Positions 1 through 62,911 of a DNA stretch of 64,000 nt are shown piece by piece. The stretch lies in contig JADZBC010000009.1 of NCBI GenBank assembly GCA_020852295.1, forward strand, positions 7,081 through 71,080, written 5' to 3'. The notes beneath the pieces were generated by a model. The model saw only the letters and a program-made list of their open reading frames with translations. It searched no databases and had not been told where the DNA came from. Origin of the DNA: a bacterium. GTDB lineage: Bacteria > Patescibacteriota > Saccharimonadia > CAILAD01 > JADZBC01. The translations under genes and the position numbers were made by a program. Position 1 is the stretch's first letter, and each line of letters begins with the position of its first letter.

Positions 1-1347
1 CGGATCGACGCGACGGAGGATGTCCCGGGCTCGCCGCTCCAGATCCTGCTCGGTCAGGACGTCGCCGTCCTCATCACCGTGCACCTGGACCCGGATCGTG
101 TTCAGCTGACCGTACGTGACGGTGTCGCTGGGCACGAAGCTGATGGCCTGGATGACCTGACTGCGGGTGCCCTTGGCGGTGAGCGGCGTCACGAAGTACA
201 TCCGCCCATCCTCCTGGCTCCGCAGGTTGTAGTCAGCCGGGTTCTCGGCATTGGCATCGATGTCCACCGGCTCGAAGCCGAAGGCATCGTTGTTGTGCCA
301 CTTGCGCCCTGCCGACCAGTTGACCATCTCACGCTGCTTGGTAGCCACGCTGATGGGGTACACCGGGCCGGGGATCTCACCCGATTCGACCGAACGCTTG
401 TACTCGATCACCGGCGAACCGGATTCCGAGCCACGCACCACGATGACACCAGCCGGCATCTCGATGCTGCGCGAACCGTTCCATCGGTCCATCTTGACCG
501 GCATCACGATCACCGGGTTGTCATCGGTGTCGCAGTAGCCGTAGACGTCGCTGAGGCTCCAGTACACGCTCGCGCCAACCTGTTCGCGGATGCGATCCGA
601 GAGGCTGTTGGCGAAGTTGCCGGTGATGGCCGCATCGAGGCGGTTCTTGCCCTCGAAGCGGCACTGGTGCACCTGCTCGGCGTCACCGCTCCACTCGACG
701 ATGCTGTCGATGTGGATCCGCTTGCCGTTGCCATCGCGGATGGCCGTCCACCTGCCGCCGCCCTCTCGGTCCGAGATGTAGGCGTAGGTGTCATCCAGGA
801 TGTCAGCCTTGGACGAGCCAGTGGCCCTCTCGCTCGTGATCCGTTGGGCGCCAGCCAGTGAGGCGGGGCGCTCTTCGAAGCCACTTGCGAGATAGCTGAT
901 GGGTACGCCGGCCACGACTCTGGCAGGACCGACATCGTGCCGCCCTTCGAGCAACCGAGCCAGGATGCGCGGGGGCGCATCCTTATCGGCATACTCGATC
1001 GAGACTGAACGCACGAACGGCGCGGCCTCGAGCTTGGAATCGGTCGTCATGGACGAGACGATCATGCCTATGCACACGACCACGGCGGCAACCGTGATCA
1101 ACACGCCAGGCACGGGGTTCTCATCCTCGTCGTACGACGCGAAAGCCGCAACGCCGTAGCAGATCGCCACCCAAACCAGGCTCAACACCTGGCCCGAGCG
1201 CGACATCGGCGAAACGGCAACCATGTAGGCGCGCCATGCGGAGAAGCCCGCCTGGTCCCACATGAGACCCGCGATGGCAGCGATGAGCCACCACACCAGG
1301 GCGAGGGCGGCCAAGCCGCCAAGCGCGATGAGGGTCGCGTAGCCCAT
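1..1347 (-). CDS. Partial CDS whose 3' end runs off the window start. Polytopic membrane protein with three N-terminal TM helices and a large soluble domain. GC is about 63-68%, far above the rest of the window.
   Basis: Manual minus-strand translation from the ATG at 1345-1347 (MGYATLIALGGLAALALVWWLIAAIAGLMW...) stays open to position 1, more than 445 aa, and reads like protein. Plus-strand ORF 79..861 is its antisense shadow. It is absent from the ORF track because there is no stop inside the window. Confidence 0.55.
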   Translation of the reverse strand, partial: MGYATLIALGGLAALALVWWLIAAIAGLMWDQAGFSAWRAYMVAVSPMSRSGQVLSLVWVAICYGVAAFASYDEDENPVPGVLITVAAVVVCIGMIVSSMTTDSKLEAAPFVRSVSIEYADKDAPPRILARLLEGRHDVGPARVVAGVPISYLASGFEERPASLAGAQRITSERATGSSKADILDDTYAYISDREGGGRWTAIRDGNGKRIHIDSIVEWSGDAEQVHQCRFEGKNRLDAAITGNFANSLSDRIREQVGASVYWSLSDVYGYCDTDDNPVIVMPVKMDRWNGSRSIEMPAGVIVVRGSESGSPVIEYKRSVESGEIPGPVYPISVATKQREMVNWSAGRKWHNNDAFGFEPVDIDANAENPADYNLRSQEDGRMYFVTPLTAKGTRSQVIQAISFVPSDTVTYGQLNTIRVQVHGDEDGDVLTEQDLERRARDILRRVDP

Positions 1348-1670
1348 CTTCTTCAACACGAAGTTCTCCTCTTGGGAAGGTTCTCGCAACGAGTCAGTCG
1401 TTGCCACTGTTTGAGATAGATCCTTGCAGACCACCTCACCCTCACTACCCTTTGCAAAGGTGATGTAACCTGATCAAAAATGATAATTACAATATCATTT
1501 TTTGTATATCTTGTCAATACTCTTTTGGTTGTGACAGACAGGCGGTGAAACCTGCTGTCACTCTTTTGAGCGGTCCCGTTTTCCGCTCATCACTCTGTTC
1601 GTTATATCACTCGTGTACAGCGCTTGATGAGAGGAAGACACTTCTGTGTCAGGACCTGTGCTTTTTTGGT

Positions 1671-1693
1671 AAAAAAAATCCGCTGGCCGCGGA
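1671..1693 (-). terminator. Candidate rho-independent terminator on the minus strand, downstream of the nucleotidyltransferase-domain gene.
   Basis: Plus-strand A8 run at 1671-1678 followed by hairpin tccgc-tggcc-gcgga at 1679-1693. Read on the minus strand this is a hairpin followed by a T8 run. Confidence 0.4.
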
Positions 1694-1784
1694 CCTCGTA
1701 GGCTTGGTCTTTGGCGAAACGGGAATTTCGATACCTATAGCTTATTAAATTGTGAGAACATTATAGGGCAATGTAGCAGACTTG

Positions 1785-2654
1785 TCAAGCCCCCTGCTCT
1801 GATCTGATTTTTTTGTATCGCTCGGCTATCTCGGTGGTACGATCGAGGGCATGAAGATTGATGATATCAGGGCGAATCCGAACAAACGCGCGCTCAGTAT
1901 GATTCTTTGGCTGGCGAGAAGTATGCTTGAGATGACGACGGTAGCCAATGTCATCAAGCCAATCAAACACTCGCCAACCACCGCGAAAGATTCGCAATGG
2001 GTGATGCGGCCACGGATAGTTTGGTAGCTTCTCCTGATAATAGCCGCTCTTTCGCAGCAGGCCATGCCACACATCGGCGCCATATACCGGCTTGGCTAGT
2101 GCATAACGCCAGAGCAGATCGGGCTCATTGGTTTTCATGATGTCACGCTCCCACTTCACACCAACCGTCGTCAGGAACATACCGAGGCTAAAGCGCGCGG
2201 CTTTGTCCTTCTGGGTCTCGAGCTGCTTGAGAAGCTTGAGGCCATACATGAGAATACCCTTACTCAAAAAGATACGGCGCGGCGTCGTCACGACCAACAG
2301 ATCGATATCGCTGTTTTTGTTGGGGTTACCGATGCTCACACTGTTGACCACCACGATCGCCTTCACCGCCGGGATGAGCCGCATCAGATAACTCCAGCGC
2401 TGCGCCTTGACCAGGAGCCGGTCAACGATAGTATTTTGGCGCTTCATGTTGTGGTACTTGATCCCTGGCAAACCCCAGTATTCTTTCTGGATACGCACCA
2501 CATGGCCCTTGGCGACGAGCTTCTGTAATTCATCCTTAACCGCCAGATGGCTGGTGCGCACACGGATATACTCGAGGAGCTGCTCCTCGGTCACAGGCAG
2601 CTGCATGACAGCCATGTAGCTCAAAAAGTCCAGGATAGCAGCTCGTAGCCGCAT
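1785..2654 (-). CDS. Nucleotidyltransferase-fold (Pol-beta superfamily) domain protein, co-oriented and adjacent to the phosphohexomutase gene.
   Basis: Complete 289-aa ORF. It carries the motif VVVNSVSIGNPNKNSDIDLLVVT, which resembles the G[SG]...D.D nucleotidyltransferase signature. There is a 4-nt gap to the upstream gene. Confidence 0.55.
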   Translation of the reverse strand: MRLRAAILDFLSYMAVMQLPVTEEQLLEYIRVRTSHLAVKDELQKLVAKGHVVRIQKEYWGLPGIKYHNMKRQNTIVDRLLVKAQRWSYLMRLIPAVKAIVVVNSVSIGNPNKNSDIDLLVVTTPRRIFLSKGILMYGLKLLKQLETQKDKAARFSLGMFLTTVGVKWERDIMKTNEPDLLWRYALAKPVYGADVWHGLLRKSGYYQEKLPNYPWPHHPLRIFRGGWRVFDWLDDIGYRRHLKHTSRQPKNHTERAFVRIRPDIINLHALDRTTEIAERYKKIRSEQGA

Positions 2655-2657
2655 GGC

Positions 2658-3995
2658 TTAGCCCCGAATGAGTTTGAGTAGTTCTTCGGTTTTTTGCTTC
2701 ACGACAGAAGCATCTTCGCTCTCGACATTGAGCCGGATAACCGGCTCAGTGTTGCTGGCACGCACGTTGAACCACCAGTCTTTGTACTCAACCGTAAGGC
2801 CGTCGAGTTCATCTTGCTGGCCATCCAAGTACTTGGCCTTGAGTGCCTCGAGCACTTTTTGGGCGTCCGCCACCTCTGAGTTGATCTCACCCGACTGGGT
2901 ATAGCGACGACGAAAAGGCGTAAATTGCTCGGAGGCCGGCAGGTCTTTTTGGCCCAAGATATGAAAAGCCTTGAGTGCGGCCACCAGGCCACTGTCGGCT
3001 CGGTAGTTGTCTGCGAAGTAAAAATGCCCTGAGTGCTCAGCGGCAAACACCGCTCCCGTCTCTTTCATCTTAGCCTTGATAAAGCTGTGGCCCACCTTGG
3101 TTTTGATCGCCGTTCCACCCAGTGCCGAGATCGTATCAGGTACGATGTGTGAGCAGATCGCGTTGTAGAGTATGGTTGCGCCCGGGTGCAGCTCGAGCAT
3201 CTCGCGAGCGATCAGCGCCCCGAGTACGCTGCCCGTAACCACTTCACCCTTTTCATCAACCAAGAATGCTCGATCGCCATCGCCATCAAAGGCCACGCCG
3301 ATCTGGAGGCCTTTGCCCTGAACCAATTTCTGCAAGTCGGCCAAATTTTCTTCCACGAGCGGATTGGCTGGGTGATTCGGGAAATTGCCATCTGGGTCCA
3401 GGTAGAGGCCTTCGATCTCTAGCGGCGATTCGGCCACGAGCCGTTCAATGACTGGGCCCGCCATGCCATTGCCCGCATCGGCGCCCACCTTGAGTGGCTT
3501 GAGCTCACCAGCAAGCTCCAGCGTGTGCTGCACCCACTCATCCATGATGTCTTTGCTGGTGACACCCCCCTGCTCACTCGAGGGCTTGAAGGTGTCGCCC
3601 GCAACATTATCGCGAATTTGAGCAAGGCCCGACTCAATACCAATCGGTGCCACTCCCTGGCCAGTCAGCTTGATGCCGTTGTATTCCCCTGGGTTATGAC
3701 TTGCCGTGATCATGGCTCCGCCGGCCAGATCGTACTTACCGACTGCGTAATAAATCATGTCACTAGCTACCTGTCCGATATCCATCACTTCCCTGCCCTG
3801 CTTGGTCAGCCCGGCTATCATCGCGGCCGCCAGCTGTGAGCTGTCATTGCGCATGTCATGACCAACGGCGACAACTCCTTTAGGTAGATAGTCGGCCAAT
3901 GCTCGACCAACTGCTTCGACCACTTCTGGTGTGAGCTCAGTCCCTACTTTGCCGCGGATATCGTAGGCTTTAAATATGTCTGTAGCGAACTTCAT
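2658..3995 (-). CDS. Phosphomannomutase/phosphoglucomutase (alpha-D-phosphohexomutase family).
   Basis: 445 aa. Active-site TASHNP(GEYNG) motif, metal-binding loop GVAFDGDGDR, and a sugar-binding region with GHSFIK/EHSGHF. Confidence 0.9.
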   Translation of the reverse strand: MKFATDIFKAYDIRGKVGTELTPEVVEAVGRALADYLPKGVVAVGHDMRNDSSQLAAAMIAGLTKQGREVMDIGQVASDMIYYAVGKYDLAGGAMITASHNPGEYNGIKLTGQGVAPIGIESGLAQIRDNVAGDTFKPSSEQGGVTSKDIMDEWVQHTLELAGELKPLKVGADAGNGMAGPVIERLVAESPLEIEGLYLDPDGNFPNHPANPLVEENLADLQKLVQGKGLQIGVAFDGDGDRAFLVDEKGEVVTGSVLGALIAREMLELHPGATILYNAICSHIVPDTISALGGTAIKTKVGHSFIKAKMKETGAVFAAEHSGHFYFADNYRADSGLVAALKAFHILGQKDLPASEQFTPFRRRYTQSGEINSEVADAQKVLEALKAKYLDGQQDELDGLTVEYKDWWFNVRASNTEPVIRLNVESEDASVVKQKTEELLKLIRG

Positions 3996-4118
3996 ATATG
4001 TATCGTAATACAGTTAGCTATCCATGAGAACACAAACCGGCACAAAATATTACTATATAGCCAAGTTGACGCACCCAACCCTATTGGCCATAATTTTAAG
4101 CATAATCGAGGTATCAAT

Positions 4119-14526: not shown

Positions 14527-14619
14527 GGAGAGGTACCCAAGAGGCTGAAGGGGCTGGTTTGCTAAACCGGTAGGGCGGGGTAACTTGCCGCGAGGGTTCG
14601 AATCCCTCCCTCTCCGCCA
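14527..14619 (+). tRNA. tRNA-Ser(GCT), type II, CCA encoded.
   Basis: Acceptor ggagagg/cctctcc, anticodon loop tTGCTAa, long variable arm, T-arm gaggg-ttcgaat-ccctc, discriminator G followed by CCA. Confidence 0.85.
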
Positions 14620-14633
14620 AGTTTTTTTTATTT

Positions 14634-14725
<92 letters not shown>

Positions 14726-14740
14726 ATAATGCAACGTTTG

Positions 14741-14773
14741 AACCCCGGTCTCGGATGAGAGTGGGGTTTTTTG
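14741..14773 (+). terminator. Candidate rho-independent terminator after the tRNA-Ser pair.
   Basis: aacccc-(16 nt)-ggggtt followed by tttttgc. Confidence 0.45.
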
Positions 14774-14870
14774 CATCTCGGGGCATCCGACAGGACTTGC
14801 CGCGCATCCTCTGTAGTCATTCCTGACATGCGCCGGGTGCCAAGCTACATAGTTGTATAATGAAGTTGTT

Positions 14871-15443
14871 ATGCTAACTCAAAAAAGAAGAAAGGGTAGG
14901 GGTTGGTTTTGGCGATATAGCAACACGCTACTGTTGGCCGGCAGTTTAGTGTTGCTTGGTGTGCTTGCACAGACGCCAGCTCTTGATCAGTTCGTCCAGA
15001 CGGTGGGCTCGTTGGGCTACGTAGGTGCTTTCATAGCGGGCATATTCTTTGTGTCGACCTTTACGGTTGCGCCCGCTGCACTCGTCTTGATCCACTTTGC
15101 GCAGAGCCTTGATCCAGTCGAAGTAGCTTTATTAGGTGGTGCTGGTGCTGTAGTCGGCGACCTGATTGTCTTCAGTTTGCTCCGTGACCATGTGTTTGAT
15201 GAGCTCAAGCCGCTCTTTCGCAGGCACCGGCCAAAACGTTTGCTTGGTCTCATGCGCAGCCCCTATTTCGCCTGGATATTACCAATCATTGGTGCTGCGA
15301 TCGTTGCCTCTCCTTTACCAGACGAAGCTGGCGTTGGTCTACTAGGCGCGTCAAAGATGCGTCGGTGGCATTTTGTTGCACTCACCTTCTTGCTGAATTC
15401 GATAGGCATTTACATAATCGCAACCAGCGTGCGCTTGAATTAA
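14871..15443 (+). CDS. Small polytopic membrane protein, hypothetical.
   Basis: About 190 aa with four or more hydrophobic helices. The track start at 14853 is TTG. ATG 14871 (MLTQKRRKGRGWF...) was preferred. A perfect TATAAT sits at 14856-14861, which would make the mRNA leaderless. Confidence 0.55.
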   Translation: MLTQKRRKGRGWFWRYSNTLLLAGSLVLLGVLAQTPALDQFVQTVGSLGYVGAFIAGIFFVSTFTVAPAALVLIHFAQSLDPVEVALLGGAGAVVGDLIVFSLLRDHVFDELKPLFRRHRPKRLLGLMRSPYFAWILPIIGAAIVASPLPDEAGVGLLGASKMRRWHFVALTFLLNSIGIYIIATSVRLN

Positions 15444-15581
15444 CGCCGCAAGGTCATCCCAAAAAACCTGGTTCAACCCCTGTTCTAGGAGAGCCGCCAA
15501 TAGTAAATCCCGAATCAGCTTCGGCTGATTTTTATTTTCATTGATTACGCCTGTCGACAAGCGTACACTGAGCTCATCACC

Positions 15582-15983
15582 ATGAAAACAGCTGGTTTTG
15601 CAGTCATAGAGCACAAGGGGAGTTATCTACTCGTACTCGAAAAAATCCCTACTGAATACGGCCTCTGGGGCCTACCTGGTGGCAAAACTGACCCAGGAGA
15701 AACAGTCGAGCAGGCAGCCGTTCGGGAAGTGTTCGAAGAAGTCGCATTATCTGTTTCACTTGAACGTGAACTTTTCGCCGCCATAGATCACGATATACAA
15801 AAGCACTTATTTTTGGCGCGCGGAAAACATAGACAAGCCCGAGCAACTGACGATGTCTTGTGCCACCACTGGTTTTCTTTTGACCAGATCAAAAAGCTGC
15901 ACGCAGCAGGGCGACTACGGGGCGACTGGGTCATGGCGGCAATCGCTGCCGCCGAAAGGGCCCGCACTCGCTTGCCAGCATAA
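15582..15983 (+). CDS. NUDIX hydrolase.
   Basis: Nudix box GLPGGKTDPGETVEQAAVREVFEEVAL (GX5EX7REVXEEXG). Confidence 0.85.
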   Translation: MKTAGFAVIEHKGSYLLVLEKIPTEYGLWGLPGGKTDPGETVEQAAVREVFEEVALSVSLERELFAAIDHDIQKHLFLARGKHRQARATDDVLCHHWFSFDQIKKLHAAGRLRGDWVMAAIAAAERARTRLPA

Positions 15984-16018
15984 GCAGTCTGCATCATAAT
16001 AAGGCCAAAGGTGAGGGT

Positions 16019-16633
16019 ATGAACGACGAACAGCAACCAGTAAAGGGGCCGCGACAGCAGCCCGTCCAGCAGCCAGAGAAAAAACAGGGGAGGTTTGCCG
16101 CAGCTTTTGGGGCGCTCGTTGGGCCCGACAAGGAACAGGTTATTTCGCACCCAGACGAAGAGCCGGCCGAACCCGAGGTGTCACTTCTTCAGTGGCGCGC
16201 ACCCGAGTTTGCCTACACCAAGAAGCCCGTTGGTTGGTTTGTGGCACTCGGCGTGCTTTTTGCTGGCCTAGTTGCGCTCGCCATCTACACACAACAGTGG
16301 CTGACGATCGGTCTACTGGCCGTTATGGCTATCGCGGTCGCCGTATATGCCAACCGGGAGCCCCGTGAGCTCGACTACGAAATAACCAACTACGGCATCA
16401 AGATTAACGACAAAGACTACGACTTCGACAAATTCCGCTCGTACTATGAGATGGACGACTACGGTCACAAATACATCGACTTTGTGCCGGTAAAGCGGTT
16501 TGACCTGCTTGTTTCTATACCAGTACCGCCAGAACTCGAGGACGACATCGAAGACCTCATGAGTCAGGTGCTGCCCAAGACCGAGACGCGCAATGACGCT
16601 ATCGACAAACTCTTTCGCTTCCTCCGCTTCTAG
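16019..16633 (+). CDS. Hypothetical membrane protein with two TM helices.
   Basis: 204 aa. Q/P-rich N-terminus, two adjacent TM helices (WFVALGVLFAGLVALAIY / LTIGLLAVMAIAVAVYA), acidic C-terminus. Confidence 0.55.
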   Translation: MNDEQQPVKGPRQQPVQQPEKKQGRFAAAFGALVGPDKEQVISHPDEEPAEPEVSLLQWRAPEFAYTKKPVGWFVALGVLFAGLVALAIYTQQWLTIGLLAVMAIAVAVYANREPRELDYEITNYGIKINDKDYDFDKFRSYYEMDDYGHKYIDFVPVKRFDLLVSIPVPPELEDDIEDLMSQVLPKTETRNDAIDKLFRFLRF

Positions 16634-16680
16634 CCTTCCAATTATTGCTCGTTTAAGGTAAAATAAGCCGGTTCTAACGC

Positions 16681-16757
16681 GCGCTCGTAGCTCAGTTGGA
16701 TAGAGCGTCGGTTTGCGGTACCGGAGGTCGCAGGTTCGAATCCTGCCGAGCGCACCA
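16681..16757 (+). tRNA. tRNA-Arg (anticodon read as GCG), CCA encoded.
   Basis: Canonical cloverleaf. Acceptor gcgctcg/cgagcgc, D-arm gctc-agttggata-gagc, anticodon stem tcggt/accgg with loop ttGCGgt, T-arm gcagg-ttcgaat-cctgc, discriminator A followed by CCA. Confidence 0.8.
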
Positions 16758-16800
16758 GAGGCCCATAAATCAGCAATGGTTTGTGGGCCTCTGGTTTTCT
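16757..16800 (+). terminator. Hairpin with T-tract after tRNA-Arg, a possible terminator.
   Basis: agaggccca-(loop)-tgggcctct followed by ggttttct. Confidence 0.4.
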
Positions 16801-16849
16801 GGTTGACTCTATTGGATTTTCAGGTTAGAATTTCTTTTGCTTTTACAGC

Positions 16850-16925
16850 GAGGGCGGAGCTCGGCCTGGCTGAGCGCTCCCTCAACCCGAGGGAGAGGTC
16901 GGAGGTTCAAATCCCCCCGCCTTCA
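16850..16925 (+). ncRNA. tRNA-like element A. Acceptor, D and T arms are intact, but the anticodon arm is replaced by a 7-bp stem with a 5-nt loop. Possibly a pseudo-tRNA.
   Basis: Acceptor gagggcg/cgccttc (all paired, one G.U), D-arm gctc-ggcctggct-gagc, T-arm ggagg-ttcaaat-ccccc (one mismatch), central hairpin ctccctc-aaccc-gagggag. No U33 or purine-37 context, and no CCA. Confidence 0.35.
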
Positions 16926-16968
16926 CTGGGTCTCGAGACGCTGCCATGTGCCGTCTCGGGACTCGCTT

Positions 16969-17063
16969 GCGAGTAAACGCTGGGTGATGGCACCCCAGCT
17001 CCTGTTGCCGCAGGAATAGGTTTCGTGATCTCGCCTATCGTGGGTTCGGGTCCCACTACTCGC
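16969..17063 (+). ncRNA. tRNA-like element B. Type-II-like with 5 arms and a perfect 7-bp acceptor, but the anticodon-position loop is 6 nt.
   Basis: Acceptor gcgagta/tactcgc; hairpins gctggg-tgatggcac-cccagc, tcctg-ttgccg-cagga, atagg-(13 nt)-cctat; T-arm gtggg-ttcgggt-cccac; no CCA. Confidence 0.3.
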
Positions 17064-17090
17064 TCGAGGCAGGCATGCCACAAAATGCCG

Positions 17091-17172
17091 CGGGCTGTAG
17101 CGCAAAGTGCCTTCGGGCCGGTAGCGCGCTGCCTTCGGGCAGAGGTTGCTGGTTCAAGTCCAGCCAGCCCGA
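17091..17172 (+). ncRNA. tRNA-like element C. Acceptor and T arm are intact. The anticodon arm is replaced by a UUCG-tetraloop hairpin, and a second UUCG hairpin is inserted in the D-loop. There is no anticodon.
   Basis: Acceptor cgggctg/cagcccg perfect; D stem gcgc/gcgc with inserted gcc-ttcg-ggc; ctgcc-ttcg-ggcag in the anticodon position; T-arm gctgg-ttcaagt-ccagc; discriminator A. Confidence 0.35.
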
Positions 17173-17280
17173 CGAGAGGGAGCCCACAAAGCACGGCAAG
17201 CCGAGTAGGCAACTCCCTCTGGTGGGTGGATCGATGAATGTACGCATGACACGCGTAAACTGTCGATCCACCCACCCCAC

Positions 17281-17355
17281 GCCCCTGTAGTTCGCGGTAA
17301 GAACACTGGGGAATCCACGCCCCAGAGGTTGGCTGTTCGAATCAGCCCAGGGGCT
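17281..17355 (+). ncRNA. tRNA-like element D. Canonical acceptor, D and T arms, but the anticodon loop is 9 nt (or 8 nt with a 6-bp stem).
   Basis: Acceptor gcccctg/caggggc perfect; D-arm gttc-gcggtaa-gaac; stem ctggg/cccag around loop gaatccacg; T-arm ggctg-ttcgaat-cagcc. Confidence 0.35.
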
Positions 17356-17383
17356 CAAAGGCTCGATCAGCCTCAATGATCAC

Positions 17384-17454
17384 GCGCCCGTAGCTTAAGC
17401 GGCAAAGCTCTGTCTCTTAAACAGGAGTTGAGGGTTCGAATCCCTCCGGACGCA
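17384..17454 (+). tRNA. Probable tRNA-Lys(CTT). Slightly atypical, with one acceptor mismatch and no nucleotide at position 26.
   Basis: Acceptor gcgcccg/cggacgc (C4-A69 mismatch), D-arm gctt-aagcggca-aagc, anticodon stem tctgt/acagg with loop cTCTTaa (U33, A37), T-arm gaggg-ttcgaat-ccctc, discriminator A, no CCA. Confidence 0.5.
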
Positions 17455-17488
17455 CAAATTGTTACCTTGGATTGGTCCAGGGTAACCA

Positions 17489-17515
17489 CCCCGGCTCTAT
17501 GCCGGGGTTTGCTAT
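17489..17515 (+). terminator. Rho-independent terminator closing the tRNA / tRNA-like array.
   Basis: ccccggc-tctat-gccgggg followed by tttgctattt. Confidence 0.6.
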
Positions 17516-18328
17516 TTACGATAATTTTTGAAAAACGCCGTGCAGAGTGTGTTCGAGACCGAAATATCGTTCGTCAGATTGTTTTTGAATAGCCTCGTAA
17601 ATCCGTGTCTCGACCACCAACTTAACCGGCCTGAAGCCAAGCTTTTCAATGAGATCATAATCTTGCTGTGTTCCACCATCCCAAACCAAATATCCACCTG
17701 GCTTTATGACCCTGGCGGCCTCTTGTAGGGCCGCATCACGGAGATCAGATTCATGGTCTGGTTCGAACTCTCGCAGAGCCCCATTGAGGGCACTAATATG
17801 AACCGAGCCAGCCGAATTATGCGCTAGTGGCATCTGCCGCACGTCAGCAATCGCATCCAGCTTCGCGCCTGGCATCCCCAGCGGCGAGTGTGTAACGTTT
17901 GTCACGAAATCAGGTTTGGCATCTGGCAGAATGTGCGAATCAGCCCTGCGCTCGGTTGGCCCGGCAAACTCAACTGCAGTGCCCGCGCCGTGCACAGTTG
18001 GCCAATCTATATCTCCCCAACGAAAAGTTTGGGTTATGGAGCGGTATTCATCGTCTGTTGTTTCTTCCCCGCGCGGTGGATCTATTTCGTAGTCATAGTC
18101 TATCTTGGCATCAGGTCCGAGTTTTGCCGGCAACCAAGAGTCGACATGGCGTAATATCTTCTCGGCCTCTTCTCTCTTAAAAAATGTCGTGTCTGATAGA
18201 TCAAACTCGCGCCCCACTAGGTGCAATAAGTCTTGGTGGAGGTTTTCGTGGGAGGGAAGTGGTGTTTCGCCAGGCATAGCTCGATTATAGTCTAAACCGC
18301 TCGAGCCTGGTACAATATTGCAGATCAA
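17516..18328 (-). CDS. Hypothetical protein, possibly with a SAM-methyltransferase-like C-terminal segment.
   Basis: 270-aa complete ORF. RVIKPGGYLVWDGG resembles the post-motif-II region of class I methyltransferases. Support is weak. Confidence 0.5.
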   Translation of the reverse strand: MICNIVPGSSGLDYNRAMPGETPLPSHENLHQDLLHLVGREFDLSDTTFFKREEAEKILRHVDSWLPAKLGPDAKIDYDYEIDPPRGEETTDDEYRSITQTFRWGDIDWPTVHGAGTAVEFAGPTERRADSHILPDAKPDFVTNVTHSPLGMPGAKLDAIADVRQMPLAHNSAGSVHISALNGALREFEPDHESDLRDAALQEAARVIKPGGYLVWDGGTQQDYDLIEKLGFRPVKLVVETRIYEAIQKQSDERYFGLEHTLHGVFQKLS

Positions 18329-18332
18329 CTAA

Positions 18333-18424
18333 GGAGAGATGGCCGAGTGGTTGAAGGCGCTGCTCTCGAAAAGCAGTATGCGGGGTTACTCGCATCGTGG
18401 GTTCGAATCCCACTCTCTCCGCCA
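18333..18424 (+). tRNA. tRNA-Ser(CGA), type II, CCA encoded.
   Basis: Acceptor ggagaga/tctctcc, anticodon stem ctgct/agcag with loop cTCGAaa, long variable arm, T-arm gtggg-ttcgaat-cccac, G followed by CCA. Confidence 0.85.
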
Positions 18425-26192: not shown

Positions 26193-26678
26193 TTAGTTGG
26201 CCTTTCCGATAACAAATGTGACGATAGAGTAGGCGAGAATGGCAACGATAAGACCGACAATCGAGTAAACAATTGCATCCTTGGCGACTCGCGTTCTGTT
26301 GGGATCACCCGCCGAGAACACATACAGCGCCGCGCCTATTAGTACGCCGATGACTGACACAACCCCGACGATCCAGCCAAGGAAGGTTATGACTCTTGAG
26401 ACAAGCTGGTTGACTGTAGAAGGAGTGGCACTACCCCCAAGCGATGAGGGTACCTTGGCGCCCGAGGCATTTGTTGGAGCTGGAGTAGGGGCGGGAGTAC
26501 GAGGAACCCCAACTACACATCTACCGTCTGGCTGAGCAGTCTTTCCGGTGCTTCCGTCGGGCAAGGTGCAAGGCAGGCCAATATCTTCAGGTGGCAATGC
26601 CGCCGATGCCATTCCCACGAAAGACAACGCTAGGCCCAATATGAGTATCGCCGATGTAAATAAATACTTTGGTTTCAC
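26193..26678 (-). CDS. VirB2/TrbC-like pilin-family protein, paralog 3 of 6, with a Pro/Thr-rich variable region.
   Basis: Signal peptide, Cys pair, PTPAPTNAS linker, then module VITFLGWIVGVVSVIGVLIGAALYVFSAGDPNRTRVAKDAIVYSIVGLIVAILAYSIVTF. Confidence 0.6.
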   Translation of the reverse strand: MKPKYLFTSAILILGLALSFVGMASAALPPEDIGLPCTLPDGSTGKTAQPDGRCVVGVPRTPAPTPAPTNASGAKVPSSLGGSATPSTVNQLVSRVITFLGWIVGVVSVIGVLIGAALYVFSAGDPNRTRVAKDAIVYSIVGLIVAILAYSIVTFVIGKAN

Positions 26679-26686
26679 ATCTTTAC

Positions 26687-26950
26687 CTATTTAAACTGCG
26701 TTACTACTACATTAACTATGAGATAGGCAGACATTGCGATTACAAGACCAGCAATAGACCAGGTAATCGCATTTTTCGCTTGGCGCAGCCTATCAGGTTG
26801 ACCAAATGAGGATGCGTACATAATGCCGCCAATAATAAGAAAAATTACCGATAGTACACCCACGAACCAAAAGGCGATAATCATAGCATTTGCAAGTATC
26901 TGCTTCGGCCCATCGAGCGAGAACAGGTCCACACCATTAAAGAGATTCAT
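26687..26950 (-). CDS. VirB2/TrbC-like pilin-family protein, paralog 2 of 6.
   Basis: Module ANAMIIAFWFVGVLSVIFLIIGGIMYASSFGQPDRLRQAKNAITWSIAGLVIAMSAYLIVNV. It overlaps the next gene by 1 nt. Confidence 0.55.
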   Translation of the reverse strand: MNLFNGVDLFSLDGPKQILANAMIIAFWFVGVLSVIFLIIGGIMYASSFGQPDRLRQAKNAITWSIAGLVIAMSAYLIVNVVVTQFK

Positions 26951-27339
26951 TAAAAGTTACCTCCGGCGATTATCAAGTTAAGAATAACCCTCATAGATAC
27001 AAGAACAAACAATCCTGTTATCGAGGTTACTATTCGTTTTTTCGCCGCCTTAATTCCGTCCGGTTGACCCGCAGAAGTAATGAGTTGGATTGAGCTGATA
27101 ATAATAACCAGGACAGCCACCCCGCCGATAAGCCCAGTTACCCAGTTGGCAATCCCGTTAATTAGCATGATTGTTGCGTTTTCGCCGCCCGCACCGCATA
27201 TCGCACTAAGCCCAGGTGTACCTACCGTCACGTTGCCGCATTGTGCCGCATGAGCCGGTGTGCCACTCATAGCAACGAGTAGTGCGCCAATCAGTGTTTG
27301 TAATATTCTACCTTTGAGATTTTCCTGTTGCGCATCCAT
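26950..27339 (-). CDS. VirB2/TrbC-like pilin-family protein, paralog 1 of 6, closest to the divergent VirB6-like operon.
   Basis: Signal peptide ...AMSGTPAHAAQC, Cys pair, then module MLINGIANWVTGLIGGVAVLVIIISSIQLITSAGQPDGIKAAKKRIVTSITGLFVLVSMRVILNL. Confidence 0.55.
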   Translation of the reverse strand: MDAQQENLKGRILQTLIGALLVAMSGTPAHAAQCGNVTVGTPGLSAICGAGGENATIMLINGIANWVTGLIGGVAVLVIIISSIQLITSAGQPDGIKAAKKRIVTSITGLFVLVSMRVILNLIIAGGNF

Positions 27340-27429
27340 ATAGGTATATTCTACGATTGTAAATCGGGCGAGTCAAAGTGAAGAGTTTCGATTGCCCGAA
27401 CACCATAAAAAGTTTATGATGAGTCTAAT

Positions 27430-30400
27430 ATGAGAGTGCGAGGGACAAAATATAGCAGGGCGCTATCGAGGATGCTTGGTCTGGCTGTATTTGTCATCGC
27501 CCTAACTGCTGTTTTCGGTATATTCAGCGCTCCCCGCGCCGAAGCTGCGATCAATAAGGACTGGGTCCAGCCAGCCTGGAGGGATGGGATTGGTGATAAT
27601 GGAACCGACGACGAAAGCAGGATACACTGTGGCTTCTTGTCCTCAGCACGCATCGTGTGCGAACAAAAGATTGGTGGGGTTTCGGGTGCGGATGACACGT
27701 TTGATTTTTGGTATGACCCAATAAACAGCAAGAAGTATGCATCTCTAGATGTTTTCCGATCAGATTCTGGACAGAACGCCGGAGATGGCGACCAGGGGTG
27801 GATCGTCTGTAGTATACAGGGAGGTTATGCCGAGGACACCTGCTACGCCCTCAAGGACCTGACTGATACAACCGCCCAAGGCTACACCTCTGGAAGACCC
27901 GTGACCGGGTGGAGCTACAAGGGTATTGACTTAGCCCCTTCAAAAGACTGGTCGATAGATAATGTCGGCGAGTTCGATAAAGATCCGGACTGGAAGGGGA
28001 TAGATACGGACGCCGATCGGGATAAGATATGTAACATAAAAATGTTTAGTGGCGATGCGCCGCCGCCAAGTACGTGCATTACGGGCTTCAATGGCACTAG
28101 GGACGTAGATATATCAGCACTGAGTAGTTTTGTTAGTGGATATCCTCAGTGGCGTGATGCCGATGCCCTCAAACGCGCCTGCGACAACGCCGTTGGGATA
28201 CTTAGTTTTATAATCTGCCCGATCATTGGCTATATGAACAACACGATAGTTGCCATGATTGGGAAAGAGAATCTACCTTCGGGAAGGCTAAATGGTAGTT
28301 TTCCGGCAGAAGGGCAAACGCCGTCTGAACCCAAGGGCTTACTCATTTCTCTTTTAGAAGTGCGTCCCCTACTAGCAAAGGTGAGTAGTGGAGGGGGTTC
28401 TTTCGGTGACGCCACTCCTGCCTCGGGATCTGCTGTTACCTCTGGTATCTGTGACGACGCAAGCGATCCAGGGGGCGCAGACACAGCCTACACCTGCTCC
28501 ATAAAAGTCATGTGGAACAACATGAAGAACATCACGCTCACGATCTTTATATTGATATTCTTAGTAATTATATTTGCTAACGTGGCTACGATAGGCATTG
28601 ACAATTACACAATTAAAAAGATGCTGCCCAGACTTGTTGCGGCGGCTATACTGATACAGTTTTCGCTACTTATAGTAAGCCTACTGGTAGATATCTTTAA
28701 TATCTTTGGTAAAACCGTATCGGGTCTTATCCTATCACTGGCGCCTGCGACATCTGTATGCTCGACTGTAGCTACTGGTCCCAGCGGCACAGGGGCCGGT
28801 AAGGTTGTGCTTGGAGCAGGATTGGGCGTTGGTGTAACAGCCCTTCTCGCTAGTCCTGTTGGAGGACCTATAGCGCTCGTTGGAGTCGTTGTGATAATCG
28901 TCCTTGTGGTTATGATCGCTATAGCCGCCATCGGTGCATTTATCGCCCTGCTTGCGAGACAGCTCATAATCTTCGCTCTCGTTCTTACGGCGCCTTTGGC
29001 TTTCGCTGCATGGATCCTACCGGGAACTGAAAAATACTTCAAGCTCTGGCGTGATAACCTTATTAAGTCACTCGCCATGTTCCCAATCGCAGTTTCTATG
29101 CTTGCTGCGGCAGTACTGTTTAGTACTACCGTTATTCAGGTAAGCGCTTGCGAGCAAGAATTTAGCCTGTCCACAATCATGGCTGCGCTCGTACCAATGG
29201 TAGCGCTGCTGATGCTGCCGAAGACTTTCAAATGGGGCGGCAACCTAACCTCGGCCATCGCGGGCGGCATCATGGGTGCAGCCGTAGCTCGATCAAAAGG
29301 GGTCGGTAGCGCTGCCTCCCGCTACGGCAAAAATCAAGTTAAGAAGGGTGCTTCGGGTCTAAAAAATGCAGCGCAAGACCGACTGAGCCAAACTGGTTTT
29401 GGTCAAAACACCAAGACCGGCCGCTTCTTGTCGGGCGGCGGACTGTTCGCTTCATATGCAGGCACTACCGGAAGCCGGCAGGCTGTAGCAGCGCGTAAAA
29501 ATGCCGCCCAGTCTGCGGCAGATAGAGAGGCAGCAAACCTACTTCGCCAAGCAAATAGTTTAGATGCCGATGCACGCAATACCAACCTCTCTGGAAGACG
29601 GCGAGCGGCGGCTGCAAGAGAACGAGACAGAATCCGCGAAAAGCTCTACGGCAGTAGCGCCACTCCTGCTATGCGGGCTGCTGCCCTAAACGCAGCGGCA
29701 AATGCAGGCGACCACCAAACATTAACAGCAATACATGGCGAATACAGTAGGCGGCGCAACGGCGCGCAGGAGTGGCAGGAAGCACTTAACTCTACCGGCT
29801 CACATGATGCAGTAGCGGCCACCATGCATGCCCATGCACAGACACTTGCACCCGGTAGTGCTGAGCGAAATAGCATCAACCAAATGCTTACCGGCGCGGG
29901 TGCTACACCTAAGCTGCGCGCAGCCGCGGTAAAGACCATGGCAGCAGCGGGCGATGGCGCTGGACTGGTTGCTGCGCATGAGAACACAGTACGTGCCGGC
30001 GGCCAACAGGCGTGGCTGGACGCTATTAATGCCAACCCTGGTTCAATGAAAGCTGTCGCTGATGCAGTATCTACCCACGCTTCTGGCATGACTGGGTCAA
30101 TTTATGCCGGCGCACCTGACTATAACCATGATAAAGCAGCCGCCCTGTCAGTCATAACAGGACAACAGGCAAGTCCGGCACTTCGTTCTGCAGCGTTAGG
30201 TACCCTTGCGAAGTCTGGCAATGAGGAAGGTATTGAGGCTGTTCGCCAAAGCATCCGCGCCGCGCACACAGACCGCACTACGGGCGTAGTAGACGAGGTT
30301 GCTGCTGGTCAAGAATGGGCGCGTGCGGTACAAGCAAATTATGGGGACTTCGACAAGGTTCCACACTTGCGACCATTTGCCGACGCCGAGCGCGCCGGTG

Positions 30401-31728
30401 AAGCAGCCAAGCTGACCGCCGGATCTTTTGCCGATGTGGCAGGGGGCGTAAAAAAGACACTTACTCGCCCAGAATTCTTAGAATCAACACTCTCGCCAAA
30501 AGTGATTACTGAGGCTACCGATGTGCAGCGCACCTCAATTCCGCAGGCAGCGAGGGAGAATATTGGACTTTGGGCTCACGGCGCAGCTAATGAAGTAGAC
30601 GCAAGCGGTCAGCCCGTAATGACGGCAGCTCGTCGGGCAGCTGAACTTAGGGCAGCCGGCCACCGAACTGAAGCGGATGCTGTTGAAGCCAGGGCGAATG
30701 AGTATAAGACTGTGCTAGACCGAAATGGCAACTGGACCGCACCAGCAGCCGGCGCACCCGCCGGCTCAGGCGGATCCTCATCCACAGGGACTGGCTCGTC
30801 TGGAGGCTCCACCACAATGCCACGCGGTGCTGCTGGTGGCCACACAGGAACCGTCAACGCAAGTGGGCTCTGGGTGCCTAATAGCACAGGAGGCTCTGCA
30901 CGATCAGGGTCTGGCCCATCTACGGGACCTACACCGCCTCCTGGAGGAGCACCACCGCCACCTCCTCCACCGACTGGCGGCCCCGGACCAAGCACACCGC
31001 CACCTACGGGACCTACACCGCCTCCTGGAGGAGCACCGCCGCCTCCTCCTCCAACCGCAAGCTTTGACCCACTTGGCTCAGACCTTGACCCGGGCTATGG
31101 GGCAAATAGGGAAGCTCAGTCTCGTATCTTGGCGGATATGGCGGCAGGCAAGAGCGCGAGCGAAGCAGCTGCAACACACCTAGATTCTGGCTCATCGCCA
31201 TTTGATATCGGCGAACTCCCTGGCTCCTCATTGCCAGCAGGTGAGAGAAGTGCCTGGACTCCTCCATCTGAGCGAGCAGCCGACTGGACCCCACCGACTC
31301 CACTGCCAGCCGAAACTCCAGCACCAACTAGTCCGATTGATGATTCCGTGCGATCCACCGCATCCTCAAGCAATACAACCACAGGCACAACTGTCCAGGG
31401 CTCCTCATCCGATGAATCTAGTGCGAGCAGCGGCAAGTCAGTCCCTACATCGTCAACTTCTGGTCGAGCAACTGGCAGCCGCGTCGACGCAGGCTCAAGT
31501 GTAGCAAGCGACTTGGCGCGCTATGATGCCGAAACACGAGCTCGTCAAGCGGCCGATCGTGCGAAAGAATCCGCCCGTGAAAGCTCTAAAGAAACTCGAA
31601 AGCTCATCGAGCGCACCGAAAAAAATAGACGTGAGGACATGAGAAGACTCGGCAACAGAATTGAGGGGGGCGGCGATACAGGTACAGAGGCAGAGGCTCC
31701 GCAAAACGACACAAGTAACGAAGAATAG
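27430..31728 (+). CDS. Giant VirB6/TrbL-like T4SS inner-membrane channel protein with an N-terminal secreted Cys-rich domain and a long Ala/Pro-rich disordered C-terminal tail.
   Basis: 1432 aa. Signal peptide, about 350 aa extracellular domain with many Cys, then 6-7 TM helices with a VirB6-like pattern (...ILIQFSLLIVSLLVDIFNIFG..., ...LLARQLIIFALVLTAPLAFAAWILPG...). After that come Ala-rich RAAAL repeats and PPPGGAPPPPPP tracts ending in a basic/acidic tail. Confidence 0.6.
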   Translation: MRVRGTKYSRALSRMLGLAVFVIALTAVFGIFSAPRAEAAINKDWVQPAWRDGIGDNGTDDESRIHCGFLSSARIVCEQKIGGVSGADDTFDFWYDPINSKKYASLDVFRSDSGQNAGDGDQGWIVCSIQGGYAEDTCYALKDLTDTTAQGYTSGRPVTGWSYKGIDLAPSKDWSIDNVGEFDKDPDWKGIDTDADRDKICNIKMFSGDAPPPSTCITGFNGTRDVDISALSSFVSGYPQWRDADALKRACDNAVGILSFIICPIIGYMNNTIVAMIGKENLPSGRLNGSFPAEGQTPSEPKGLLISLLEVRPLLAKVSSGGGSFGDATPASGSAVTSGICDDASDPGGADTAYTCSIKVMWNNMKNITLTIFILIFLVIIFANVATIGIDNYTIKKMLPRLVAAAILIQFSLLIVSLLVDIFNIFGKTVSGLILSLAPATSVCSTVATGPSGTGAGKVVLGAGLGVGVTALLASPVGGPIALVGVVVIIVLVVMIAIAAIGAFIALLARQLIIFALVLTAPLAFAAWILPGTEKYFKLWRDNLIKSLAMFPIAVSMLAAAVLFSTTVIQVSACEQEFSLSTIMAALVPMVALLMLPKTFKWGGNLTSAIAGGIMGAAVARSKGVGSAASRYGKNQVKKGASGLKNAAQDRLSQTGFGQNTKTGRFLSGGGLFASYAGTTGSRQAVAARKNAAQSAADREAANLLRQANSLDADARNTNLSGRRRAAAARERDRIREKLYGSSATPAMRAAALNAAANAGDHQTLTAIHGEYSRRRNGAQEWQEALNSTGSHDAVAATMHAHAQTLAPGSAERNSINQMLTGAGATPKLRAAAVKTMAAAGDGAGLVAAHENTVRAGGQQAWLDAINANPGSMKAVADAVSTHASGMTGSIYAGAPDYNHDKAAALSVITGQQASPALRSAALGTLAKSGNEEGIEAVRQSIRAAHTDRTTGVVDEVAAGQEWARAVQANYGDFDKVPHLRPFADAERAGEAAKLTAGSFADVAGGVKKTLTRPEFLESTLSPKVITEATDVQRTSIPQAARENIGLWAHGAANEVDASGQPVMTAARRAAELRAAGHRTEADAVEARANEYKTVLDRNGNWTAPAAGAPAGSGGSSSTGTGSSGGSTTMPRGAAGGHTGTVNASGLWVPNSTGGSARSGSGPSTGPTPPPGGAPPPPPPPTGGPGPSTPPPTGPTPPPGGAPPPPPPTASFDPLGSDLDPGYGANREAQSRILADMAAGKSASEAAATHLDSGSSPFDIGELPGSSLPAGERSAWTPPSERAADWTPPTPLPAETPAPTSPIDDSVRSTASSSNTTTGTTVQGSSSDESSASSGKSVPTSSTSGRATGSRVDAGSSVASDLARYDAETRARQAADRAKESARESSKETRKLIERTEKNRREDMRRLGNRIEGGGDTGTEAEAPQNDTSNEE
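30922..31051 (+). repeat. Imperfect direct repeat inside the VirB6-like gene: two 47-nt units with an 83-nt period, encoding GPTPPPGGAPPPPPP.
   Basis: acgggacctacaccgcctcctggaggagcaccRccgccRcctcctcc occurs at 30922-30968 and at 31005-31051. Confidence 0.7.
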
Positions 31729-31733
31729 TCACT

Positions 31734-32573
31734 ATGGGACAATATAAAGTACCACAAAACGTAGAAACCGAAGATAAGATCTTGGGTCCGCTGACGATCA
31801 AGCAGTTCATCTATGTGATCATTGCTCTAGCCTGGGGATTCATCATGTGGCGAATCTTCTCGGCGGCTATACCGATCGCAGTGCTTACCATTTTGCCGGT
31901 TAGTGGAGTGTTTTTAGCGCTCGGTCTCATCCAGCGAGAAGGACAAAGTTTTGAGAACTATTTTGTGGCAATGGTTCGTTACTTTTTCGTGCCGCGCATG
32001 CTGGTTTGGACCAAGGAGCCAGAAATGGTTCAGGCCATCAAGGCGCCAAAGAAGAAGGTCGACACCGGTCCAACTTATCGCCGTAGCCCTGACGAGATAC
32101 GTGGTGCACTCAAAAAACTAGCCACCGTTATCGATACACATGGCCAGTTTCAAAAAGGGGAGACGCTCCAGCTGGCGGATGACCAAAACGAAGCAGCCGA
32201 GATCAGTAAGCGCATCGCCGGGCCACAAAACCAGTCGCTTGAGCAGCATATCAACAACATGGCACAAGCAAGTGACGATATCCTTGATCCGAACAGCGCT
32301 CGCGCCGGCTCGGTCGGCAATTTGCTTCAAAATGTCGAACAAGACGTCCGTGCTCAAGCCAGGGCAACTATGGAAAAAGACCTCCTAAAGTCTGACCGAA
32401 AAACTGCCGACCTCATACCAACGAACGTGCAAGCTACTTCTCACACCCACGCCCAAGATGCTATACTCAAAATGGCTATGCAGAGCGGCGGCATATCTGT
32501 TTCACAGCTCGCCCAGCAAGCCAATCGCCACCTAACCCTTGAGGAGGGTAAGGCGGTCAAGATAGAGCAATAG
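31734..32573 (+). CDS. T4SS VirB3/PrgI-like small membrane protein (two TM helices) with a C-terminal soluble extension.
   Basis: Sits immediately upstream of VirB4. N-terminus ...EDKILGPLTIKQFIYVIIALAWGFIMW... followed by a second TM, the topology typical of VirB3/PrgI. The assignment rests on position and topology, not on a family match. Confidence 0.4.
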   Translation: MGQYKVPQNVETEDKILGPLTIKQFIYVIIALAWGFIMWRIFSAAIPIAVLTILPVSGVFLALGLIQREGQSFENYFVAMVRYFFVPRMLVWTKEPEMVQAIKAPKKKVDTGPTYRRSPDEIRGALKKLATVIDTHGQFQKGETLQLADDQNEAAEISKRIAGPQNQSLEQHINNMAQASDDILDPNSARAGSVGNLLQNVEQDVRAQARATMEKDLLKSDRKTADLIPTNVQATSHTHAQDAILKMAMQSGGISVSQLAQQANRHLTLEEGKAVKIEQ

Positions 32574-32613
32574 CCCTATCTAACCCGTGTGAATTATCAA
32601 GGAGAGTGGAGTT

Positions 32614-40906: not shown

Positions 40907-40907
40907 T

Positions 40908-43517: not shown

Positions 43518-43523
43518 ACATGC

Positions 43524-62050: not shown

Positions 62051-62054
62051 GAAG

Positions 62055-62891: not shown

Positions 62892-62911
62892 ATTGTAAAG
62901 GGAGAAGCTAA

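Follow-up and report, generated by a model that had tools for sequence, protein, structure and literature searches.

In naturally transformable Streptococcus and Neisseria, single surface or antigen genes undergo allelic replacement by recombination. Genomic islands of atypical composition, in the concept attributed to Lawrence and Ochman, are said to stem from recent transfer and to ameliorate afterwards. A higher GC in recombining bacterial genes that does not depend on codon selection has been reported as well (Lassalle et al. 2015, PMC4450053), and natural competence has been reported for Saccharibacteria (PMC10187176 and PMC10633639). Here, we analyzed a stretch of 64,000 nucleotides of a Saccharibacteria genome (assembly GCA_020852295.1, contig JADZBC010000009.1, positions 7,081 to 71,080; hereafter, the window), at whose left edge a GC-rich block encodes most of a membrane-anchored protein. 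The reading that we favor, and consider probable, is that the block belongs to a real gene of a Saccharibacteria locus, that this gene has been exchanged between lineages by recombination, and that its GC-richness is maintained and is not the residue of a donor genome.

The initial annotation of the window described a high-GC block at the left edge with a strong skew of third codon positions, a description borne out by our analysis. The block (GC 0.646) consists of a single minus-strand open reading frame (ORF) that runs off the left window edge, and the GC content of this ORF (1-1359) at first, second and third codon positions (GC1, GC2 and GC3) is 0.62, 0.47 (versus approximately 0.39 elsewhere) and 0.845, respectively, its GC3 lying at z = 4.8 relative to the other 45 large ORFs (0.39-0.67, mean 0.525, standard deviation 0.067). 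Measured per 200 nt, GC is 0.62-0.66 throughout positions 1-1400 and 0.43-0.50 over 1301-1900. The abrupt fall in composition past the block was correctly described, but the label "AT-rich" does not fit a spacer of 43-50% GC, and the rest of the window, placed earlier at 35-55% GC, ranges from 0.41 to 0.59 in 1-kb intervals (window-wide mean 0.499). No other 1350-nt stretch of the 64-kb window has a GC above 0.598. Codon choice within the gene is strongly skewed (TTC 100%, ATC 97%, AAC 93%, AAG 100%), with A-ending codons almost missing; T-ending four-fold codons remain, and GAC reaches just 52%. At the protein level, Arg, Ala, Gly and Val are raised and Lys, Phe, Asn and Leu are lowered. A plus-strand ORF at 79-861 is presumably a shadow ORF, as expected in GC-rich coding DNA.

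The gene and its upstream neighbors in the window are as follows:

1..1359, minus strand: gene of the membrane-anchored protein (codons 1-453 of 572; cut at the left edge; GTG start at 1359)
1366..1371, minus strand: Shine-Dalgarno sequence GAGGAG, 6 nt upstream of the GTG start (1359-1357), read from the sequence
1785..2654, minus strand: nucleotidyltransferase-domain gene (Pfam), upstream neighbor of ordinary composition (GC3 0.65)
2658-3995: PGM/PMM gene, beside the nucleotidyltransferase gene and, with it, the resident flank

Because full-length homologues begin with MLKKMGY (P0002-P0005) and GAGGAG lies upstream, the GTG at 1359 is most likely the start codon, in place of the ATG at 1347 proposed earlier. 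In L001, a contig of the same species, the gene order is PGM, nucleotidyltransferase, the gene (GC3 0.83), groES, groEL, APH and PGI, with ordinary GC on both sides, and PGM/nucleotidyltransferase upstream and/or groES/groEL downstream are conserved in L001-L009. Positions 1-1359 cover three-quarters, from the 5' end, of a gene that lies on the Saccharibacteria chromosome between PGM/nucleotidyltransferase and groES-groEL.

A chimeric join, in which DNA of a high-GC organism was stitched onto a Saccharibacteria contig at about 1350-1800, had been proposed as one explanation of the block. The abrupt composition shift at the boundary of the coding sequence (CDS) would be expected from such a join, as would the truncation of the gene by the window edge and the four related contigs (L003, L004, L005 and L007) that end in or beside the gene. 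The same junctions are nevertheless found in three independent assemblies from different ENA samples, namely L146 (ERZ17987536; 100% identical to window 1-1774), L145 (ERZ3756521; 99.4% identity over window 1-2261) and L001 (ERZ27296353; 97% identity over window 1-3996), which span both junctions and continue on the far side into groES/groEL of ordinary composition. L146 runs leftward past the window through the last 119 codons, the 3' untranslated region (3'UTR) and groES to the start of groEL, and the identical architecture recurs in six more distant genomes. Contig ends are to be expected where co-occurring strains share the gene and differ in their flanks, and those of L003, L004, L005 and L007, as well as the start of the window inside the gene, would reflect assembler behavior at such a shared segment. 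As far as assemblies can tell, the block is a real, correctly assembled gene, and the probability of a chimera is negligible. As a separate observation, contigs L004 (1-1361) and L007 (9965-11128), both from MAG_140 (JBPOIL01), end inside the gene, with a divergence of 11.4% between them over 1167 nt; there are two alleles or strains of the gene in this one bin, and the assemblies break at the gene.

To place the gene within the history of its locus, we compared it with three flanking genes (PGM, nucleotidyltransferase and groEL) in flanks of about 10 kb, on which the discordance described here rests. Between the window and L001 on the one hand and L003-L007 on the other, the gene shows 82-88% protein identity and 80-86% DNA identity with a synonymous divergence (dS) of 0.44-0.89, and identical amino acids are encoded by the same codon in 64-78% of cases, where saturated sites with the codon usage of this gene would be expected to give 48-55%. 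The flanks of the same genomes share 53% (PGM), 51% (nucleotidyltransferase) and 80% (groEL) amino acid identity, and their proportion of synonymous differences (0.71-0.79) is saturated. By groEL, L003-L007 (0.80-0.81) and L008/L009 (0.79-0.81) are equidistant from the window, and likewise by PGM (0.48-0.53); by the gene, L003-L007 stand at 0.82-0.88 and L008/L009 at 0.56-0.58. Among themselves, L004-L006 share 0.95-0.97 identity in groEL and just 0.82-0.88 in the gene, and L003 and L007 share 0.95 in PGM. Since the alleles across L003-L007 are only 0.82-0.93 identical, the window allele falls within the diversity of that clade. The alleles are furthermore reticulate, with 47% of informative site pairs incompatible and a permutation p = 0.011 in the pairwise homoplasy index (PHI) test. 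Within the species, the gene differs between the window and L001 by a dS of 0.04 and the flanks by 0.15-0.25. The gene has a ratio of nonsynonymous to synonymous divergence (dN/dS) of about 0.17-0.25, which corresponds to purifying selection and ruled out a reading of the protein as a hypervariable antigen under diversifying selection.

Because the flanking genes do not account for the closeness of the window allele to those of L003-L007, a piece of approximately 1.9 kb appears to have been replaced. Comparison by blastn gave sharp identity boundaries at L001 2631/2655 (window 1383-1407) and L001 4534/4552, the upstream one falling within the window:

1383..1407: upstream breakpoint zone (blastn boundaries), from which nucleotide identity to L003-L007 is 81-86% through the CDS

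This stretch of high identity begins about 25-50 nt before the start codon and ends about 140-155 nt beyond the stop codon. The 5' leader of the window is of type 1, as in L008/L009, while L003-L007 carry a different module 2. The simplest reading of these patterns is replacement of the segment by homologous recombination between distant Saccharibacteria, in either direction, in which the resident promoter and leader would have been kept and the exchanged piece would have run from the ribosome-binding site (RBS) to a structured 3'UTR with a hammerhead candidate. Natural transformation is the probable route of exchange. A gene-specific force would hold the GC-richness near equilibrium, so that this composition would not be a fading signature of a high-GC donor.

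With respect to composition, we checked 10 Saccharibacteria loci from genomes with a GC content of 43-55%. At each of them, the homologue stands out from its neighborhood by a high GC3, with logit offsets of 0.6-1.7 between the gene and its neighbors. Values at eight of these loci are:

L003: gene GC3 0.80, neighbor mean 0.58
L005: gene GC3 0.80, neighbor mean 0.52
L006: gene GC3 0.67, neighbor mean 0.51
L008: gene GC3 0.72, neighbor mean 0.57
L009: gene GC3 0.78, neighbor mean 0.56
L010: gene GC3 0.84, neighbor mean 0.49
L011: gene GC3 0.73, neighbor mean 0.56
L012 (43% GC genome): gene GC3 0.585, neighbor mean 0.385

The Saccharibacteria lineages that carry the gene are 31-57% identical in its protein, and because synonymous sites have turned over many times at such identities, a fading donor signature should be gone. 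We polarized synonymous third-position changes among close alleles by parsimony, counting changes from weak (A or T) to strong (G or C) bases (W>S) and the reverse (S>W). On the L001 branch, 6 of 19 weak sites had become strong and 11 of 201 strong sites weak, a much higher rate per site for W>S than for S>W, which gives an equilibrium GC3 (GC3*) of 0.85; the estimates for the L005 and L003+L004 branches are 0.78 and 0.84, respectively, the L004 branch on its own being too sparse for an estimate. Net decay is confined to the L006 branch (GC3 0.67), with 41 S>W versus 3 W>S changes. Taken together, these estimates argue for a GC3 bias that looks to be held near equilibrium (GC3* about 0.8) and is not decaying. 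The maintaining force is most likely GC-biased gene conversion (gBGC) in an often-recombining gene, selection for codon or mRNA composition in connection with the strong promoter and the leader, or both, and the gene under this force may originally have come from a high-GC source.

Several points weigh against this reading. The polarized counts are small (6 versus 11) and parsimony is biased under skewed composition; the PHI signal is modest; and the support for the assembly is drawn from other assemblies. The raised GC1 and GC2 and the bias of Arg over Lys are what high-GC ancestry would lead one to expect. In addition, GC falls exactly at the ends of the CDS, while gBGC should raise the GC of adjacent non-coding DNA too; this fall fits codon-level selection better, although the flanking RNA elements are themselves constrained. 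Finally, the shift in relative synonymous codon usage of the gene correlates with that of groES/groEL (r = 0.41) and differs from it at Pro, Gly, Arg and Phe. Ordinary translational selection fits in part, but not cleanly, with groES/groEL as the sole highly expressed genes compared.

In an alternative reading, the gene is native and vertically inherited, its high GC3 is an ordinary codon bias for translation in an envelope protein produced at very high levels, and its low dS results from codon constraint. The promoter matches the consensus perfectly, and the gene shares with groES/groEL a preference for C-ending two-fold codons and an avoidance of ATA, AGA, GGA, CTA and TTA; a high GC3 is also seen in other genes that follow the same leader, and the dN/dS of the gene is compatible with constraint. 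Such a bias, however, leaves the discordance at the protein level unexplained (0.82-0.88 versus 0.56-0.58, with the genomes concerned placed at equal distance by groEL and PGM), and it meets a same-codon fraction well over the saturation expectation and a leader and CDS with different nearest relatives. Moreover, the GC3 of groES/groEL (0.53-0.62) is not raised, and these genes prefer CCA for Pro and T-ending codons for Gly and Arg. We regard this explanation as distinctly unlikely, and continue with recombination between lineages and a maintained GC-richness as the preferred reading.

A further possibility raised by the initial annotation was a recent horizontal acquisition, possibly from an actinobacterial host. 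We examined the distribution of the family. In the species-representative genome set, all 10 matches are Saccharibacteria/Patescibacteria metagenome-assembled genomes (MAGs), and the closest relatives (50-100% identity) are all Saccharibacteria, with the gene at the same chromosomal position. A profile search for the family retrieved 444 cluster representatives. A search seeded with the Thermomonospora member revealed an actinobacterial branch composed of Thermomonospora, Actinomadura, Actinocorallia, Streptomyces odontomachi and Kitasatospora, and the three actinobacterial contexts examined (L013, L017 and L020) are chromosomal; for a further member, the Actinoallomurus fragment P0042, the context look-up gave no record. 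The nearest actinobacterial proteins are 31-37% identical to the window protein, and any member outside Saccharibacteria 25-38%. In a neighbor-joining tree, the labelled actinobacterial sequences form one clade, apart from two Saccharibacteria clades, with several clades unlabelled.

Distant members (25-34% identity) occur on contigs of high GC (0.63-0.68) and 78-225 kb in length that are phage-like or stem from IMG/VR (L015, L016 and L141-L144). L015 is a 141-kb contig (GC 0.63) with a clamp loader, PRPP synthase and NAMPT beside the gene, and L141-L144 are IMG/VR contigs of 78-225 kb with a GC of 0.67. One viral protein gives a full-length fold match (Foldseek E = 2e-14, template modelling score 0.51). 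Using tblastn with three family members, we found nothing in 50,697 phage genomes, and a single weak Curtobacterium match (25% identity) among plasmids. An ancient link between the family and Actinobacteria and their mobile elements exists, whatever its form.

A recent import of unameliorated DNA from a high-GC actinobacterial host can draw on the genuine actinobacterial branch with its chromosomal contexts, on a GC2 and amino acid composition shifted to high-GC usage, and on a composition and codon usage that are atypical for the genome. The search of the translation against actinobacterial proteins, however, returned 31-37% identity at best, versus 50-100% for Saccharibacteria homologues, and the actinobacterial sequences occupy a separate clade. 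The gene keeps its syntenic position, and is GC-enriched throughout, in Saccharibacteria sharing just 50% protein identity. Nor did we detect hallmarks of mobility: the neighbors are housekeeping genes with no integrase among them, the nearest tRNA gene in the window lies at 14527, and the gene in L001 is not enclosed by direct or inverted repeats. The codon profile, described earlier as resembling that of high-GC Actinobacteria, does not look like an actinobacterial one when judged on the Thermomonospora homologue, the sole actinobacterial homologue measured (GC3 0.95, against 0.845 and a GAC share of 52% here), and the substitution spectrum points to a GC3* of about 0.8 with no decay. The idea of horizontal movement stands, between Saccharibacteria lineages; its recent timing and actinobacterial source do not, and we consider such an import very improbable.

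An older version of the same idea invokes an ancient import from a high-GC source (Actinobacteria, their phages or plasmids), with an excess that decays slowly and is refreshed by less-ameliorated alleles. It would account for a family shared with Actinobacteria and with high-GC phage-like and viral contigs, for the full-length fold match of the viral protein, for the shift in GC1/GC2 and in Arg/Lys usage, for the net change from GC to AT in the L006 lineage, and for a gene GC3 that partly follows genome GC, as in L012. Saccharibacteria members nonetheless reach down to about 31% protein identity, equivalent to many-fold synonymous saturation, and all of them retain a GC3 excess of 0.15-0.35. 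Three of the four informative branches give a GC3* of 0.78-0.85, and neither a high-GC Saccharibacteria reservoir nor a close high-GC donor was found among the sequences sampled. This makes an ancient import with slow decay unlikely, and leaves exchange within Saccharibacteria under a maintaining force as the reading we retain.

In related loci, we also noted other GC3-rich ORFs. Ten of them were searched against Pfam; L009 11814-12716 encodes an acyltransferase and the other nine have no match, and some of the ten are probably spurious. Short GC3-rich ORFs without a Pfam match also occur near family members on low-to-mid-GC contigs (L014 7131-9214; L007 8686-9153; L002 788-1141; L012 15344-16030). 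Some of these may be spurious, and others may belong to the same class of GC3-rich genes.

Regarding the protein, the partial membrane-protein gene predicted by the initial annotation proved to encode a 572 amino acid protein with three N-terminal transmembrane helices. The full-length homologues P0001-P0003 are 98-100% identical, and homologues at 50-100% identity all have approximately 570-590 amino acids. An AlphaFold model based on 44 homologues (predicted local distance difference test score 81.7, predicted template modelling score 0.79) has a helical segment (residues 2-116) with three hydrophobic transmembrane stretches, followed by a beta-rich domain (119-512), a disordered linker and a C-terminal helix, which lies beyond the window edge. 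Two Cys residues and a GPVYP motif are invariant across the family. Judging from the basic N-terminus and the three transmembrane helices, the large beta-rich domain would lie outside the cell, and the protein is probably a membrane-anchored, surface-exposed member of an uncharacterized family, for which a role in the cell envelope or in host-surface interaction is our guess. Searches with Pfam, NCBIfam, PHROGs and PDB sequence profiles gave no match to the 572 amino acid protein, and Foldseek against PDB gave just weak beta-propeller-like matches (probability < 0.2).

Upstream of the gene, we identified promoter-like sites and a conserved leader of about 220 nt (1753-1531), present in 13 copies among the Saccharibacteria loci examined. 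Its elements in the window are:

1760..1788, minus strand: perfect sigma-70-type promoter TTGACA-17-TATAAT for the leader and the gene (12/12 consensus positions; same position in all 13 leader copies)
1671..1753, minus strand: leader module 1, with the invariant GCUAUAGGUAUCGAAA (1741-1726), a UUCCCG-loop hairpin and a second hairpin whose AAGCCU loop is conserved
1692-1680, minus strand: terminator-like GC hairpin of module 1, followed by U8 (1678-1671)
1531..1631, minus strand: leader module 2, a structured RNA with helices CUCAUCA/UGAUGAG and GAGCGG/CCGCUC and a terminal hairpin (compensatory changes elsewhere, by RNAalifold)
1489..1517, minus strand: second promoter-like site TTGACA-17-TATTGT with extended TG (10/12 in a consensus scan, a consensus match only)
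1386..1404, minus strand: RBS-proximal hairpin GCAACGA...TCGTTGC, read from the sequences

In eight type-1 copies of the leader, 97.3% of cells are paired and 8 pairs show double changes, versus 1-2 in slid controls. The RBS-proximal stem has the variants CCAGCGA/TCGCTGG and GATAACGA/TCGTTATGC in other loci when compared by eye, and these changes appear to be compensatory. A kissing contact could arise between two invariant loops, UUCCCG and CGGGA. The leader matched no Rfam family, the sole match being a sub-threshold isrK-like shape (23 bits versus a gathering score of 50). No further copy was found in the window by a search with the 16-mer (up to 3 mismatches) or with an nhmmer profile. L008 has a second leader copy in front of other ORFs. 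When metagenomes were scanned with the leader 16-mer, 4 of 120 matches were real and the rest were due to chance; in four metagenome contigs, the same leader cassette precedes genes for a transmembrane protein of about 175 amino acids and a lipoprotein of about 200 amino acids. These leader-linked genes are GC3-rich too (0.92/0.91 versus 0.60 in L140; 0.75/0.73 in L139), and the pair is not encoded within the window.

At the downstream end of the exchanged segment, about 0.5 kb to the left of window position 1, the 3'UTR contains conserved hairpins and a further RNA element:

L001 4498-4552, L145 about 2723-2777 and L146 about 2234-2288: type III hammerhead candidate, in the 3'UTR before groES

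This candidate, present in L001, L003-L006, L145 and L146, aligns over its full length to RF00008, with CUGAUGA, GAAA, a UC cleavage context including the cleavage-site C, and a three-stem topology in which stems I and II are closed and stem III is open. Its score of 38.7 bits (E = 3.6e-7 in a 291-nt search) is below the gathering score of 48.5, at which threshold it goes unreported. Stems II and III show compensatory changes across five loci (L001, L003, L004, L005 and L006). Separately, a second hammerhead-like core (CUGAUGAGGCCAAAAGGCCGAAA) was noted at an unrelated intergenic site, L014 5438-5460, on a 51% GC contig that carries a family member.

Elsewhere in the window, a type IV secretion-like cluster at 26193-42188 encodes a type IV secretion system pilin, a PrgI-family protein, a VirB4/TraG-type ATPase and proteins with M74 and M23 peptidases, together with a 1432 amino acid protein (27430-31728) of high GC2 (0.56) and no Pfam match. 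The cluster is followed by recF and dnaN at 42444-44630, and the window is therefore probably near the replication origin. ARAGORN called three tRNA-like genes at 16850-17356 (Gly(acc), Thr(ggt) and a third whose anticodon, tcca, has four bases), which the Rfam tRNA model does not report at its gathering score and which fall within a tRNA cluster at 14527-18424. The region 58000-63000 deviates in the opposite direction from the GC-rich gene, with a low GC (0.41-0.44 versus 0.50 for the window) and five consecutive same-strand ORFs of GC3 0.39-0.44.

The compositional outlier and the horizontal transfer by homologous recombination are of known kinds; the family-wide GC3 excess, the new leader and the hammerhead candidate are unusual. 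A sharp GC island is the textbook sign of recent horizontal transfer or of a chimera. Here it is neither, and composition alone would mislead both the curation of MAGs and screens for horizontal transfer. Both unannotated and widely conserved in Saccharibacteria, the membrane protein is encoded by a gene whose behavior sets it apart from the remainder of the genome. As Saccharibacteria are obligate epibionts with largely unknown host-contact machinery, and are genetically tractable by natural transformation, the gene is a candidate for knock-out and localization, and the locus offers a natural test bed for biased gene conversion versus codon selection in bacteria. More speculatively, as a tentative idea that we hold to be possible but rather doubtful, there could be an undescribed class of Saccharibacteria envelope genes defined by a shared promoter and leader of about 220 nt, a high GC3 in genomes of 43-55% GC, a 3' hammerhead in one clade, and exchange as cassettes; its members would be the 572 amino acid family and the leader-linked 175 amino acid transmembrane protein with its 200 amino acid lipoprotein. 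If this were true, composition, RNA elements and mobility would be parts of one system that varies or regulates the host-facing surface of the epibiont, and the relatives in Actinobacteria and phage-like elements would indicate a host-derived origin of this surface toolkit.

Compared with the islands of the Lawrence and Ochman concept, the locus is alike in its abrupt borders and in a GC content and codon usage that locally depart far from those of the genome. It differs in consisting of a single gene, in lacking integrase, tRNA or repeat hallmarks, in its synteny across deep divergence, and in an anomaly that is family-wide and whose substitution spectrum suggests equilibrium.

The allelic replacements of Streptococcus and Neisseria differ from the case described here: the partners here are very divergent (flanks of approximately 53% protein identity with saturated dS), and the exchanged gene is foreign-looking in every genome and has its own structured 3'UTR with a hammerhead candidate. 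They are alike in a gene-sized segment at a conserved locus with a history unlike that of its flanks, in sharp breakpoints, and in the absence of mobile-element genes or flanking repeats. Saccharibacteria, too, have been shown to be naturally competent (PMC10633639).

Like the recombining genes for which gBGC has been described (Lassalle et al. 2015, PMC4450053), the gene analyzed here shows recombination and a GC3 above that of the rest of the genome, and its bias is not simply that of groES/groEL, the one highly expressed operon compared. It differs in the size of the effect, which is extreme, and in the restriction of this effect to a single CDS, with a logit offset of up to 1.7, and gBGC is a candidate force at this locus.

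The actinobacterial family of membrane proteins of approximately 560-590 amino acids (hypothetical proteins of Thermomonospora echinospora, Actinomadura spp., Streptomyces odontomachi and Kitasatospora cineracea) has the same length and architecture as the window protein and shares the two Cys residues and GPVYP, at an identity of just 25-38%. At L013, the sole actinobacterial locus for which composition was computed, the gene matches its neighbors, whereas the Saccharibacteria gene deviates from its own. Lastly, the 3'UTR element shares the core and topology of the type III hammerhead (RF00008), scores below its threshold, and is a putative self-cleaving RNA; its place between a surface-protein gene and groES is unusual.

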